Source: an uncultured Actinomycetota bacterium (GTDB lineage: Bacteria > Actinomycetota > Thermoleophilia > RBG-16-64-13). Taken from it: 64,000 nucleotides of DNA. Below are positions 26,250 through 32,230 of the stretch, in pieces; position 1 is the stretch's first letter; each line of letters opens with the position of its first letter. The translations under genes were made by a program, and so were the position numbers. The notes under the pieces were generated by a model that saw nothing but the letters and a program-made list of their open reading frames with translations, had not been told where the DNA came from and did not search any database. Where the stretch lies: assembly GCA_963803925.1 (NCBI GenBank), contig CAWDOM010000003.1:21216-85215 (forward strand), read 5' to 3'.

Positions 26250-26537
26250 TCAGAGATACTCGAGACGCTTGGCGACCACCGAGACCGCCTTGCGCTCCTC
26301 GCCATCCTTCTCGTAGACGTCCTGGCGCAGACTACCTTCCACAGCGATGCGCCTGCCTTTGCCGAGATGGTCGCCGGCCGCCTCGGCCTGTGAGTTCCAA
26401 GCCTTGATCCTGAAGAAGTCGGCCTCTTCCGCGTTCCGGTCGACCGCCAGGATGAAGCTCGAGACCTTTGACCCGCCGTTCACCTCCTTGACGTCCACGT
26501 CGGTGGCCAGACGGCCGATCAGGTGCACGCTGTTCAT
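26250..26537 (-). CDS. ssb: Minimal single-stranded DNA-binding protein (OB fold only, 95 aa)
   Basis: MNSVHLIGRLATD...FILAVDR...ADFFRIKAW...AE....LGKGRRIAVEGSL; SD AAGGAGG; no acidic C-terminal tail. Confidence 0.92.
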   Translation of the reverse strand: MNSVHLIGRLATDVDVKEVNGGSKVSSFILAVDRNAEEADFFRIKAWNSQAEAAGDHLGKGRRIAVEGSLRQDVYEKDGEERKAVSVVAKRLEYL

Positions 26538-26581
26538 GGTGTCCTCCTTCGTTTGCGTGGTCGCCCCCTTCGGGGAATCGC

Positions 26582-26627
26582 AGCGTACCGGGACGCGCCG
26601 CGTGGCTGAATACAACCAAAGATGGAA
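26582..26627 (-). promoter_or_regulatory. ssb promoter module copy 1
   Basis: Minus strand TTCCATCTTTGGTTGTATTC-N20-TACGCT; conserved with identical spacing in copies 2 and 3. Confidence 0.7.
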
Positions 26628-26656
26628 TTGAGAGCGAATCGGCCCACTGTCTTGCG

Positions 26657-26680
26657 GGGTGAGCGCTCACCCAATACAAT
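26657..26680 (+). promoter_or_regulatory. Perfect 16-bp palindrome (probable TetR operator) next to TACAAT -10 box
   Basis: GGGTGAGCGCTCACCC (26657-26672), then TACAAT (26675-26680), upstream of the ABC-TetR operon. Confidence 0.7.
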
Positions 26681-26728
26681 ATGCCCCCAGAGGGTGGGCG
26701 CTTGCCCTGAACAGCACTGGAGGTCGAG

Positions 26729-27672
26729 GTGTCCGTAATACGAACCGACAAGCTCAGTCGGCACTTTGGTGACGTGATCGCACTCCGCGAGCTTGACCTG
26801 GAGATCGCTGGTCCTGGGGTGATCGGTCTGGTGGGCCCCAATGGCTCGGGCAAATCGACCTTGATCAGATTGTTTGCTGGGACTGATCAAGCCGACGAGC
26901 GGCAACGCCGCCGTCTTTGATTCGCCCATCTCCCGTCCTGGAGAGTACGCGCACCGGGTCGGAGCACTGATGAGAGTCCCGCCTTCGTTCCCTCGCTCTC
27001 GGCACGGGCCAACCTGCGCTCGCTGGCCCGTCTGCGCGGCATCTCCGACACCCGGGTCGATGAGGTGCTTGCGACCGTCGGCCTGCTCGATCGGAGCAAG
27101 GAGCCGGTGAAGAGGTTCTCGCTAGGCATGAAGCAGCGCTTGGGGATCGCCGCTGCCTTGCTCCCCGATGCCGAACTCCTTGTGCTGATGAACCGACCAA
27201 CGGCCTTGACCCTGCCGGCATCGTGGAGATGAGGCAACTGCTGCGCTCTCTGGGAGACCAGGGACGAACGGTGATCGTATCCTCCCATCTCTTGAGCGAG
27301 ATCGAGGCGGCCTGCGACAGCCTGGCCATCGTCCGTTTCGGGCAACTCCTCTTCTCGGGTCCCCTCGCTGACCTGGTCTCCCGGGCGGGGGAGAGCATCG
27401 AGATCGCGCCGGAACATCCGGCCGACGTCGAGAGCCTCGCGGAGGCGTTGCGGGCCGGCGGCTGGAAGGCATCGGTGGTACTGGACGAGGTCCATGTTTC
27501 GGCACCCGTCTCCCGGTCGGCCGACGTCAACCGGGCCGCGGCCGAAGCCGGGATCGTCCTGCGCGTACTCCGGCCGCGCGAAGCCAGCCTGGAGGAAGTA
27601 TTCCTGCGAATGACCGGCACGGAGTCGGGTGATAACGGCCGCCTGGCGCCTGAATGGGAAGGGGTGGCGTGA
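26729..27672 (+). CDS. ABC transporter ATP-binding protein (three frameshifts at about 26875, 26970, 27188)
   Basis: [25 protein letters not shown]; (D)[18 protein letters not shown], spread over different frames. Confidence 0.85.
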
Positions 27673-29525: not shown

Positions 29526-29605
29526 GGTCGCCTCCTCCTCGTCGCTTTGTTCCTGCTGCTCCCAGTCCTAGTGGCTCGTGGCTTCTCAGCGGGCCGGGCA
29601 GTTGC

Positions 29606-29651
29606 AGCGTAGCGGGAGTAGCGGCCCGAGCGAATACAACCAAAGGTGGAA
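29606..29651 (-). promoter_or_regulatory. ssb promoter module copy 2
   Basis: Minus strand TTCCACCTTTGGTTGTATTC-N20-TACGCT. Confidence 0.7.
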
Positions 29652-29755
29652 CTGCGAGGGTGAGCGGCGACCAAGGCCGCCTGAGGTCACTCCACATCTT
29701 GATATCCTATTCTAAGAAATGTGGTAGCAGTCGCTATGACCGTGAGGGATGAGCT

Positions 29756-31981
29756 GTGGGCGAATGGCGTAAGACGATGTGCGATCTCTGTCCCACAGGC
29801 TGCGGACTCGAGGTCCTCGTCGATGACAACCGCATCGTCAAGACCAGGGCGGATAAGGAGAACGGGCGAAGCCGAGGCTATACCTGCCGCAAGGGGCTGA
29901 GCATCCAGTATCACCAGCATGCGCAACGTCTGTCCCACCCGCTCAAGAGAGTGGCTGATGGCTACGAGCGCATCCCCTGGGATCAGGCCTTTGAAGAGAT
30001 CGGGGCAAAGATACGGACGATCGCCGAGAAGAACGGCCCCCACTCAGTCGCCTACGCCGGAGAGCCGAGAGCGTGGGGCGGCCTCTTGATGGGAGCATTG
30101 GGTTCCCACCACTACTACTCGTCTCTGGCCCAAGAGCTCGGCGGCGACATGTTCATGGGCACGCGCATGCTGGGCAACCCGGGGCTAGGGCTGGCCGCGT
30201 CACCCGACTACGACGAGACGGACATGCTGCTGGCTATCGGCTGGAACGGCGTGGAGAGCAACATGGCGCCACAGGCCGGTCGCTGGCTACGCGCCTTTTC
30301 GCGGGACCCCGAGAAGATCCTGGTAGTGGTCGACCCCCGGCGTTCGGAGACGGCCCGTTTGGCGGATATCCATCTGCCTATCCGGCCGGGCAGCGACGCG
30401 CTCCTCACCAAGTCCATGATCGCCATCATCCTGCAGGAAGGCTGGCAGGATCAGGAGTACATCGGGCGGCACACGAACGGCTTCGAAGCGATCCTGCCCT
30501 GGTTCGCAGAATTCGACGCTGAAGCGGCCGTTGAGGTCTGCGGGTTGGACTATGGCCAGGTGCGTGAGGTCTGCCGGCTGTTCGCCACCCGTCGGTCCTC
30601 CCTCAGATCAGGCCTGGGCATCGAGATGAACCGGCACAGCACAGTCACCTCCTACCTGGAGGGGATCCTCAAGACGATCTGCGGGCGCATCGGAGTGCGA
30701 GGTGGCAACGTGATCCACGGAGGTCTGCTGCACGCGGGTGCCCGCGCTCCCGAGCCGGGAGCCCCGGTATGGCTTACACCTGCCACGGGCTACTTTCCCA
30801 TCATGGGCATGCTTCCCCCGAACATCCTCCCCCAGGAGATCCTGAGCGACCGTCCCGACCGGATCCGCGCGCTGATCGTCTGCGCAGCCAATCCGTTGCG
30901 TTCCTGGGCCGACACCAAAGCCTACGAAGACGCTTTTGGGCAGCTCGAATTGCTGGTCACGATCGACATGGCAGCGACAGAGACGGCCGCGGTCTCCGAC
31001 TATGTCCTGCCGGCACTATCGTGCTACGAGTCCTGGGGCGGCATCTTGCCCACGATCAACGCCACCTTCCCGGATATCTACTACCAACTCCGGCAACCAG
31101 TGGTGCAACCCGACGGTGACGCACGCGATACGTTGGAGGTGCTTGTCGATCTCGCCGACGAGCTGGGACTCATACCGCCGATTCCCGAGGACCTGGTTAG
31201 CGCGGCCGAGGGCGACCGCGCCGCCTTCGCGGGCGAGTTGCTGGCCTTCCTCGAAGCGGATCCGCGACTCGAGGGGGCTCTGCCCTTCATCCTCGCGAAG
31301 ACTCTGGGTAAGGCGATGGGCTCAGTGCAACTAGCTGAGATCTGGTTCAACCTCTTCACAGCTCCAGATTTCGCCGTCGGGGAGATGGCGCAGGTCGGAT
31401 TCCATCCCGGGCCCGGGCTGGCCGACGAAGTGCTCGCTGCTCTGATCGATCATCCTGAAGGGATGTGGACCGGGCGCAGCTTCCCGGAACACAACCTGGC
31501 CGCCCTCGGTACCCCCGACAAGCGCATCGACCTGCTCATACCCGAGGTGGCTGAATGGGTCCAGAGCATCGATGCCGACTCGGAGACCGCGGCGCTGTCA
31601 TCCGACACCATATATCCCTTGATCCTCATGGCCGGGAGTCATGTGAACATCACGGCGAACACACAGCTGCGCGATCCTGCCTGGAACAAAGGCCGCCGCG
31701 TCTCGACTCTATCTGTGAATCCCAGGGACGCAGAGTCGCTGGGACTCCTCGACGGGCAGAAGGCTAGGGTGACCACCGAAGCCGGAAGCGTCGATATCGA
31801 GGTAGAGGTGACGGAGGCTGCTCGGGCGGGTCAGGTGATCATCCCCCACGGATTCGGACTGATCTTCGAAGGAGATACCTACGGCGTCAACGTCAACCTT
31901 CTCACCAAGAACACTCACCGGGACAGGATTGCCGGCACGCCTTTCCACCGTTACGTACCGTGCAGAGTGGAGGCGCTCTAG
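29756..31981 (+). CDS. Molybdopterin (bis-MGD) oxidoreductase, DMSO reductase superfamily, cytoplasmic
   Basis: CDLCPTGC...C.KG 4Fe-4S motif, RLSHPLKR, WDQAF, VVVDPRRSETA, IRPGSD, ANP, C-terminal VNPRDAESLGL..G, PHGFG; no Tat signal. Confidence 0.9.
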   Translation: MGEWRKTMCDLCPTGCGLEVLVDDNRIVKTRADKENGRSRGYTCRKGLSIQYHQHAQRLSHPLKRVADGYERIPWDQAFEEIGAKIRTIAEKNGPHSVAYAGEPRAWGGLLMGALGSHHYYSSLAQELGGDMFMGTRMLGNPGLGLAASPDYDETDMLLAIGWNGVESNMAPQAGRWLRAFSRDPEKILVVVDPRRSETARLADIHLPIRPGSDALLTKSMIAIILQEGWQDQEYIGRHTNGFEAILPWFAEFDAEAAVEVCGLDYGQVREVCRLFATRRSSLRSGLGIEMNRHSTVTSYLEGILKTICGRIGVRGGNVIHGGLLHAGARAPEPGAPVWLTPATGYFPIMGMLPPNILPQEILSDRPDRIRALIVCAANPLRSWADTKAYEDAFGQLELLVTIDMAATETAAVSDYVLPALSCYESWGGILPTINATFPDIYYQLRQPVVQPDGDARDTLEVLVDLADELGLIPPIPEDLVSAAEGDRAAFAGELLAFLEADPRLEGALPFILAKTLGKAMGSVQLAEIWFNLFTAPDFAVGEMAQVGFHPGPGLADEVLAALIDHPEGMWTGRSFPEHNLAALGTPDKRIDLLIPEVAEWVQSIDADSETAALSSDTIYPLILMAGSHVNITANTQLRDPAWNKGRRVSTLSVNPRDAESLGLLDGQKARVTTEAGSVDIEVEVTEAARAGQVIIPHGFGLIFEGDTYGVNVNLLTKNTHRDRIAGTPFHRYVPCRVEAL

Positions 31982-32130
31982 GCTTTTCCCAGCCGTCGCA
32001 GAAGTGCAACCCCCGCCTCTTCCGCGTTCCGGTCCACTGCCAGGATGAAGCTGCTGACCTTGGACCCGCCGTTCACCTCCTTGACGTCCACGTCGGTGGC
32101 CAGACGGCCGATCAGGTGCACGCTGTTCAT
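31978..32130 (-). pseudogene. ssb: ssb copy 3, 3'-truncated after ...DRNAEEA
   Basis: First 39 aa identical to the intact ssb, fused directly to the 28-bp junction repeat. Confidence 0.9.
31995..32022. repeat. 28-bp junction repeat copy B
   Basis: GTCGCAGAAGTGCAACCCCCGCCTCTTC; 13 nt after the oxidoreductase stop. Confidence 0.85.
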
Positions 32131-32184
32131 GATCTCCTCCTGCGCTGCGGCGTTTGCTACCCCATCCCACTGGACGGGAATTGC

Positions 32185-32230
32185 AGGGTAGCGGCGGCGC
32201 GGGCAGGTCGGAATATAACCAAGGATGGAA
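32185..32230 (-). promoter_or_regulatory. ssb promoter module copy 3
   Basis: Minus strand TTCCATCCTTGGTTATATTC-N20-TACCCT. Confidence 0.65.

Follow-up and report, generated by a model that had tools for sequence, protein, structure and literature searches.

The window described here is a stretch of 64,000 nucleotides (64% G+C) from contig CAWDOM010000003.1 of assembly GCA_963803925.1, and its host is a soil or sediment actinobacterium of a Thermoleophilia-like family. On its minus strand the window carries three copies of one unit built around the start of a small gene for a single-stranded DNA-binding protein (SSB), ssb. Each unit opens with a pair of conserved upstream blocks; a spacer that varies between copies, the ribosome-binding site (RBS) AGGAGG, an ATG and the beginning of the small ssb follow. 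One copy is intact, the other two are 5′ fragments, and the three units with their upstream modules alternate with cargo genes, as a preliminary description of the same DNA had proposed and as repeat search and alignment now confirm. The array that these units form, and the evidence that points to ssb as an integration site, are the subject of this analysis.

The intact gene (copy 1, 26250..26537, minus strand) encodes 95 amino acids with no C-terminal tail and matches the SSB domain over nearly its whole length (PF00436, E 2.1e-22, residues 2-95 on profile positions 1-103 of 104; phrog_44, E 2.1e-26). Copy 2 (29367..29525, minus strand) retains codons 1-53, and copy 3 (32015..32130, minus strand) retains codons 1-39. 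Two repeat families trace the unit. The first, D1, is 170 nt long and lies at 26379-26548, 29367-29536 (86% identical to copy 1) and 31972-32141 (74%). The second, D2, is a 64-nt upstream module at 26571-26634, 29595-29658 (75%) and 32174-32237 (61%). In the alignment, the modules of the three copies (26572..26627, 29595..29658 and 32174..32237, all on the minus strand) contain the conserved blocks TTCCAYCTTTGGTTGTATTC and CCCGCTACGCTGCAATTCCCC, and the spacer from block 2 to the RBS is unrelated among the copies. Homology among all genomes begins exactly at block 1. The module is a putative promoter, for which a sigma-70 scan gave a weak match in copy 3 only. Its reading as a known structured RNA was dropped because Rfam held nothing relevant for the whole window, nor for the module at a relaxed threshold, and the fold of the leader RNA was nothing unusual (z = -0.03). 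A tRNA search of the window found none.

The divergence of the copies is informative about their history. Copies 1 and 2 differ at 21 positions over nucleotides 1-159, with one amino-acid change, and dN/dS among the three window copies is 0.04-0.16. Since the coding differences are nearly all synonymous, the copies diverged as parts of working genes, and duplication in place is impossible. The preliminary description had likewise reported near-synonymous divergence and argued against a recent tandem duplication, and both points stand. In the whole assembly (3.29 Mb, 14 contigs, 88% complete), the only other ssb is an unrelated housekeeping gene on another contig, so that the small ssb is represented by the three window copies alone. 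A DNA search of the family found the unit in 54 of 61 genomes.

The position at which the gene is broken is far from random. The break points were compared in the window and 48 stretches from relatives (49 in all), which hold 30 full-length ssb copies and 29 5′ fragments. Twenty of the 29 fragments end at query nucleotides 219-227 (codons 39-42), six end at nucleotides 258-267 (codons 52-55), and three end elsewhere, which places 26 of the 29 break points inside two windows of 9-10 nt. Seven 3′ pieces of ssb begin at query nucleotides 210-215. As counted from the search rows, 24 of the 61 family genomes have at least one fragment that no contig end explains; together with the variable cargo, this bears out the earlier claim that the 5′ part of ssb is a repeatedly used hotspot. 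Multi-copy arrays are also seen on single contigs of relatives. For example, G050 has one intact copy and three fragments, and G072, G049, G046, G044, G070 and G012 each have one to three fragments beside the main copy.

The sequences that flank the main break are conserved as well. Past the break, the junction consensus is GAAGAGGCGGACTTC followed by GCACTTCTGCGAC, and TTCTGC stands at a fixed offset in 15 of 20 junctions, or in 18 of 20 when up to one mismatch is allowed. The arm GCACTTCTGCGAC occurs exactly twice in the window, both times on the minus strand at a cargo boundary (31995-32007 and 29243-29255). At the boundary of the second cargo block (cargo B), repeats, motif match and alignment define an attL-type site, with the core GAAGAGGCGG and the P′ arm GCACTTCTGCGAC (31995..32022, minus strand). 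At the left end of the first cargo block (cargo A) lies a relic attL in which a second core GAAGAGGCGG is joined to the same arm (29243..29270, minus strand; repeat D8, 93% identical to 31995-32022, with an exact motif match), and this structure is also present in G050 and G011. The corresponding attB core in the intact gene, GAAGAGGCCGACTTC, covers codons 37-41 (26412..26426, minus strand; pattern match 26415-26426). Copy 2 retains a complete attB (core 29403-29414), and copy 3 has its left half only.

On the other side of the break, four of the seven 3′ fragments (G076, G068, G072 and G018) are preceded by a GTAGGCAGAAT-like sequence, 13 nt and then GAGGCGG; the left flanks of the remaining three (G041, G011 and G052) are different. 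The GTAGGCAGAAT-like flank is an inverted repeat of the P′ arm. The attL and attR sites share the core GAGGCGGACTTC, and their arms are GTAGGCAGAAT and ATTCTGCCTAC. When the P and P′ arms of one genome are joined, an attP of about 54 bp results. It has dyad symmetry about a GAGG centre, with matches at 19 of 23 arm positions in G076 and at 15 of 23 in G018. The clustered breaks, the conserved arms and the inverted repeats together therefore amount to the attL/attR/attP anatomy of a large serine integrase whose attB lies inside ssb.

A candidate for this enzyme is found in the relatives. A protein of 464-494 amino acids adjoins ssb junctions there and has Resolvase, Recombinase and Zn_ribbon_recom domains (E 1e-26 to 1e-31); this large serine recombinase (LSR) also matches the phrog_95 integrase (E ~1e-95). 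With one query, homologues were found in 8 of the 61 family genomes, and six of the eight adjoin an ssb junction, on the attR side in G076, G068 and G072 (where it is truncated) and on the attL side in G018, G067 and G020 (where it is a pseudogene). The other two, in G055 and G069, are not at ssb. A contig scan with the LSR alignment returned five known loci and one distant match of 27% identity. One viral contig from IMG/VR, retrieved by means of the recombinase alignment, has the LSR, the P arm, the core and ssb codons 41-96 at its end. The recombinase stands beside its attachment site in relatives and in this one viral contig.

The state of one relative is especially instructive. In G018 the two halves of ssb are 59 kb apart, and the intervening DNA, with genes for a terminase large subunit and a Mu-F-like head protein, is therefore a prophage. 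Joining the halves in silico, as excision would, restores an open reading frame (ORF) of 95 amino acids, 82 of which are identical to the window SSB. In the searches made, no intact small ssb was found in the element-bearing genomes G018, G076 and G020. Near the integrase end, the G018 prophage also carries a MmeI-type restriction-modification gene and a hybrid histidine kinase (L059, 15551-18334).

Accretion could in principle be purely homology-driven or illegitimate, with no site-specific recombinase and with the conserved ssb serving only as a recombination anchor. The ssb and its module are 77-96% identical at the nucleotide level between genomes, which is enough for homologous recombination across genera, and no recombinase was found in the window's own genome; set against the 26 of 29 breaks confined to two windows of 9-10 nt, the inverted-repeat arms and the LSR genes at the junctions of relatives, this is a highly improbable explanation. 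A tyrosine integrase was also considered and dropped, because, in each of the five genomes checked, the PF00589 matches are either distant from the arrays or on different contigs; in the window's own genome they are on another contig. The two strongest of these matches in each genome (E ~1e-44 to 1e-49) we take to be XerC/D. Outside the window, the own genome has a tyrosine recombinase, probably of the Xer type, that matches Pfam in two pieces, positions 2-86 and 102-170 (G000:C9:23127-23644), which suggests a frameshift or an assembly error.

Taken together, codons 37-41 of ssb very probably serve as attB for a family of LSRs that temperate phages and smaller integrative elements carry, with the fragments in the window being attL-type scars and their neighbours being cargo. 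Integration by the LSR would split ssb into an attL, made of the upstream module, codons 1 to about 40 and the P′ arm of the element, and an attR, made of the P arm and codons from about 38 to 96. Copy 3 would then be a plain attL. Copy 2 would owe its end to another cut, at codons 52-55, and a relic attL follows after about 100 nt; the ABC/TetR operon and the oxidoreductase would be cargo left beside the scars. We infer that LSRs made the junctions in the window and that the array grew by serial events. The cargo would now circulate between genera as short integrase-less cassettes that have a P′ arm on one side and the module with the ssb 5′ copy on the other.

An intact ssb beside such cassettes could be reached by three routes. 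Circles could enter by Campbell-type homologous integration through the module and 5′ homology, a tract of about 230 nt that is 85-96% identical between genera. Elements could instead have entered decoy copies, duplicated or truncated, where they later decayed, or an LSR could act in trans on attL-type sites. The order in the window is attL, cargo, attL, cargo and the intact gene, with a new module and 5′ copy beside each cargo. Rearrangements that duplicate the start of ssb do occur at the locus, as a partial direct duplication in G072 demonstrates: codons 1-47 are fused there out of frame to codons 3-96 (L068, G072:C9, 14864-15290), and the "intact" ssb copy of that genome may not be expressed as such.

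Several observations weigh against integration by LSRs as the origin of the array. No serine recombinase or remnant of one was found in the window by tblastn (best E 0.25), in agreement with the preliminary description, which had seen no integrase or transposase there; PF00239 has no match in the own assembly; and the LSR query found nothing in 15 genomes of the own genus (g1), 9 genomes of g7 and 4 genomes of g22, though arrays are common in these genera. All of these assemblies are metagenome-assembled genomes (MAGs), from which phage or plasmid contigs may be missing as unbinned sequence, and this limits the recombinase negatives. Besides the intact attB, sites of the attL type are present in the window at 31995-32022 and 29243-29270, with no P arm or attR, and canonical LSR integration alone cannot give such an attL-only layout with an intact gene. 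Relics of the attR type do occur inside the arrays of G011 and G072. The integrase-bearing elements of the relatives carry no module and 5′ ssb copy. The pattern tried for a free attP had no match in viral contigs. The recombination events themselves are read from junction sequences, and the window's own reads gave no check, since no sequencing run contained half of the sampled words (best 0.12).

The last point would also suit an assembly artefact, in which strain variants of a single ssb locus were joined in a chimeric contig. The genome is a metagenome-assembled draft in 14 contigs, 88% complete, its repeats are 170-220 nt long, and the contigs of several relatives break exactly at the module or in ssb. 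The three copies, however, are only 74-86% identical, too distant to be collapsed or misjoined by an assembler. The intact ssb, the ABC and permease genes, the TetR gene and the codon-53 fragment follow in the same order in the independent assembly G050, which supports the assembly of the window. The junction of the oxidoreductase and attL is spanned by contigs of X1 and X2, two metagenome runs with no relation to each other; the four runs used yield short contigs of relatives, so the parts they leave uncovered are uninformative. Arrays of two to four copies also stand on single contigs in the seven relatives named above (G050, G072, G049, G046, G044, G070 and G012). Chimeric assembly is thus extremely improbable. 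The contigs L042, L046, L064 and L065 stop in the ssb module or gene, or within about 2.5 kb of it. Short-read assemblies probably break on the ssb repeats, and arrays are likely to be undercounted in relatives.

The cargo of the window corresponds to what the preliminary description had listed, from the ABC genes and the TetR gene with its operator to the molybdopterin oxidoreductase, and all of it is on the plus strand. Cargo A begins beside the module of copy 1 with a 16-bp perfect palindrome, GGGTGAGCGCTCACCC (26657-26672), and a degenerate second copy (26692-26707; together 26657..26707), both of which are kept with the cassette in other genera. Lying between the ABC operon and the ssb module, the palindrome is probably the operator of the TetR protein. 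An ABC transporter ATPase follows (26729..27672, present as ORF pieces and aligned with the intact genes of three relatives), then an ABC permease (27654..28463), 95-99% identical in amino acids to copies in five other genomes of four genera, and a TetR-family regulator (28503..29141; PF00440, E 9.4e-19), 77-93% identical to the copies of relatives. Cargo B is the molybdopterin oxidoreductase (29756..31981; PF00384, PF01568 and PF04879), which occurs in 3 of the 60 other family genomes at 67-77% amino-acid identity, not at ssb.

Against the intact copies of three relatives, the cargo A gene for the ATPase is disrupted by single-base indels at three places (near 26876, 26971 and 27186). The extra C at 27186 is also present in contigs of runs X1 and X4. 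The indels are either the mark of a decaying gene or a local patch of sequence errors.

The cassettes move horizontally between genomes. At the DNA level, cargo A shows 88-93% identity along 2.5-2.9 kb in G011, G050, G044, G072 and G073, which belong to four genera, whereas the flanking genes are only 50-65% identical at the protein level; for the MalT-like gene next to cargo A, the value in the same comparison is 50-62%. The shared core of cargo A corresponds to 26656-29159 of the window. Other cargo also recurs, including an MFS transporter (86-93% identity, two genera), a sulfate permease, an amidohydrolase and zinc-ribbon membrane proteins. The island content differs from genome to genome, so the cargo at the ssb locus is variable. 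In five loci, ParE-like toxins adjoin the element arm (e.g., L067, 11796-12056), and in G012 a pair of genes read from the ORFs as nucleotidyltransferase and HEPN-like lies beside the arm (L040, 10359-11070).

This mobility raises the possibility that the cassettes themselves, running from P′ arm through cargo and module to ssb 5′ part and core, are the mobile units. Their circles would leave and enter through the repeats of about 230 nt, by RecA or by an LSR in trans, and the LSR would have made the first junctions only. The module-side end of cargo A (the operator, about 30 nt and the module) is the same in G000 (the window's own genome), G050, G044 and G073, and the left ends differ. A second small cassette lies on opposite sides of cargo A in G011 and G073, that is, the order of the two is swapped. 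Arrays abound in the three genera in which no LSR was found. Divergence between genomes over the first 123 nt of ssb is roughly half of that over the remainder (4-15% against 15-24% mismatches), and between G000 and G044 the module and 5′ part beside the cargo are 92% identical, while identity in the ssb 3′ part falls to 69-78%. Yet stronger constraint alone could lower the divergence of the 5′ part, and the module and 5′ copies of cassette-sharing genomes are 79-92% identical, no higher than the cargo. No circles or excision products were seen, and the outer edge of the module has no conserved site, so that this end is not site-specific. On balance, such free-standing cassettes are a doubtful account of the array.

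Scars of LSR integration remain the better-supported account, and within it the structure of copy 2 points to a second site in ssb. The codon-53 ("type A") junction of copy 2 recurs in G050, G011, G070, G012 and G072. The order at this junction is the codon-53 end, GCAAATAG, about 100 conserved nt and the second core with its arm (window 29243-29270). The conserved spacer, which begins with GCAAATAG and continues through TTACCGCC, occupies 29271..29366 (minus strand) and is shared with the type-A junctions of G050, G011, G070 and G072. In G004 (L062, G004:C2, about 10340-10511), a 3′ fragment that starts at codon 50 is preceded by CTATTTGC, an inverted repeat of the type-A flank (window 29350-29366). 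The recurrent junction and this inverted repeat together indicate that insertion into ssb also takes place at codons 51-54, where the sequence GCMGAGGCG is similar to the first core; the search for a recombinase next to this second site found none.

The ssb copies that are cut at codon 53 still hold the whole first attB, and in some relatives this site has been used. Inside a codon-53-cut copy, G072 has an element of 4.3 kb whose recombinase is truncated and whose ends are attL and attR, and G011 has a 1.1-kb insert in the same kind of copy. In both genomes, the codon-40 insertion thus sits in the truncated copy and not in the intact gene. Removal of an insert of this type would give exactly the structure of copy 2 in the window.

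One could consider, more tentatively, that the array is a working cassette system. Copies with a whole attB, such as copy 2, would be decoy landing pads that spare the functional ssb, and the cargo units would be shuffled between genera by homologous recombination or by LSRs in trans. The locus would then be a serine-integrase or homology-driven analogue of the integron, in which each cassette brings a promoter-bearing gene start. The data would also allow the related idea that each incoming element brings a new 5′ end with it; the integrase-bearing elements seen split ssb and replace nothing.

Integrons themselves are defined by the tyrosine recombinase IntI, by attI and by the attC hairpins that bound their cassettes. 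The ssb locus is similar to integron arrays in that its cargo units, promoterless or self-contained, stand in a row and are separated by a repeated recombination-site element beside a fixed anchor, and in that toxin-antitoxin cassettes occur (the ParE-like genes of five loci). Unlike integrons, it shows no IntI, attI or attC hairpins, and its repeat is a gene start with an upstream module. When the region was scanned for inverted repeats, the cassette ends had no attC-like hairpin, although no search aimed at attC was made. The integron reading was dropped on the position of the PF00589 matches, on other contigs or far from the arrays, and the preliminary description's term "integron-like" finds no support for the same reason and for the lack of an attC-like repeat at the cassette ends.

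The preliminary description had also known of no described system with this layout. That view has to be revised: given the site-specific breaks, the conserved arms and the LSR at the junctions of relatives, the locus belongs with tandem accretion at integrase target genes, and tandem accretion at an integration hotspot is a known kind of structure. What is unusual here is that the site lies inside a coding region, that the repeats are long (the upstream module, the RBS and up to 53 codons), that the sites are of the attL type only and that the target stays intact. Among the top-ranked literature matches for ssb or for accretion, no serine integrase that targets ssb is described.

Some of the closest parallels involve other large serine recombinases. 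In the staphylococcal cassette chromosome (SCC), of which the elements at rlmH are the best-known example of such tandem islands, the target is the 3′ end of rlmH, which is marked by short direct repeats, and no copies of a promoter or of a 5′ coding sequence are known to be left behind. Composite SCC elements include some without a recombinase of their own, and Ccr genes are usually found somewhere in the island. The ssb locus shares with SCC an LSR-driven, site-specific insertion in one conserved gene, tandem composites and spread between species. It differs in that no recombinase was found in the window and in that the target is ssb codons 37-41. Accounts of SCC and SCCmec at rlmH (orfX) attribute their integration to the Ccr large serine recombinases (PMC13739063, PMC7029739).

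A second parallel is the ssrA locus of Dehalococcoides. Its description (PMC3146451) reports tandem serine-recombinase islands with 20-bp repeats and a CcrB homologue, DsiB, and discusses integrase-less islands as cis-mobilizable by accretion. The likeness includes a single-copy conserved target gene, tandem islands bounded by a repeat of the target end, some islands without an integration module and, as cargo, strain-specific metabolic genes. The Dehalococcoides repeat is described there as a 20-bp piece from the 3′ terminus of an RNA gene that is never split; the site in the present locus is at codons 37-41 of a protein-coding gene, the repeats are 170-260 nt long and include the module, the RBS and 39-53 codons, and the integrase is a single phage-type LSR.

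Integrative and conjugative elements (ICEs) and integrative mobilizable elements (IMEs) offer a general model. According to a review that covers ICESt1/ICESt3 of Streptococcus thermophilus (PMC5704250), accretion takes three steps, namely integration, decay to an integrase-less element and further integration beside it, and whole composites can be transferred; serine-recombinase elements are said there usually to insert within genes and disrupt them. The ssb locus fits this three-step model. Cis-mobilizable elements (CIMEs), as presented in the same review, keep both attL and attR, depend on tyrosine recombinases and target the end of a gene. The window cassettes are of the attL type only and end at an intact gene, and the window holds no integrase-less element with both attL and attR.

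The state of G018 and G076 resembles that of gene-interrupting LSR prophages, since an LSR element splits the gene and its excision in silico restores the ORF. Other LSR elements of this kind, whose target genes are rebuilt on excision, are SPbeta in spsM, skin in sigK and A118 in comK. Such prophages are not known to form arrays of displaced gene starts, and their host is without an intact copy of the gene while lysogenic. A further gene-interrupting element, gin in gerE, is the subject of another report (PMC5595907).

The locus is of interest for several reasons. From sequence alone, an actinobacterial class that has been little studied yields a natural attB/attP pair together with its large serine integrases, and genome-engineering tools are developed from pairs of this sort. 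At a chromosomal hotspot, an island of 12 kb with transporters and redox enzymes would have arisen through phage integration, decay and the exchange of cassettes, and parts of the island are shared almost unchanged between genera. The locus also raises the question of how an apparently important gene is kept intact while it serves as a landing site for phages, which decoy copies or replacement gene starts might explain.

The surroundings of the island are conserved across the family. On one side, the order of ssb, the MalT-like gene and three more genes is the same family-wide. The MalT/LuxR-type regulator, which forms the conserved right flank of the hotspot (23235..26162, minus strand; 975 amino acids; Pfam GerE, TPR and AAA_16), adjoins the small ssb in nearly all family genomes at 39-63% amino-acid identity. 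The left flank is a DUF1015 gene (39037..40593, plus strand), for which tblastn showed synteny in about 24 loci and Pfam identified DUF1015 on the copy of a relative. The variable island of the window lies between ssb and this gene, from 26.6 to 39.0 kb. In most relatives ssb and DUF1015 are separated by 1-5.6 kb; two relatives have 7.7-8.4 kb there, the window has 12.4 kb, and in G018 the distance exceeds 59 kb. The gene content of this stretch differs among relatives, which is the cargo variation that had been set beforehand as a check on the hotspot claim. Among the accessory genes of the island is the alpha-acetolactate decarboxylase gene budA (32316..33125, minus strand; PF03306, E 8.5e-81), present in 4 of the 60 other family genomes and located elsewhere in them.

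The small SSB was found in all 24 of the same-family genomes sampled, at 75-100% amino-acid identity (for the intact gene of the window the family range is also given as 81-100%), and its close homologues carry the names of Thermoleophilia or Actinomycetota MAGs. In other families of the class, only ordinary SSBs were matched, with at most 41% identity. Against its orthologues the small ssb has a dS of 0.6-1.7 and a dN/dS of 0.02-0.04. Its synonymous sites are near saturation, and the tail-less protein of 95 residues is much better conserved than the products of the adjacent genes, which are only 39-68% identical at the protein level (orthologues in L039-L072). PADLOC assigned the small SSB to no defence family, and the MalT-like protein matched in its HTH region only. 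One relative, G019, has a second full-length small ssb elsewhere in the genome (L045, G019:C6, 10050-10337), 85% identical in amino acids and without the upstream module. It lies near a HEPN-domain gene and an HTH_17 (excisionase-like) gene, in no clear mobile-element context.

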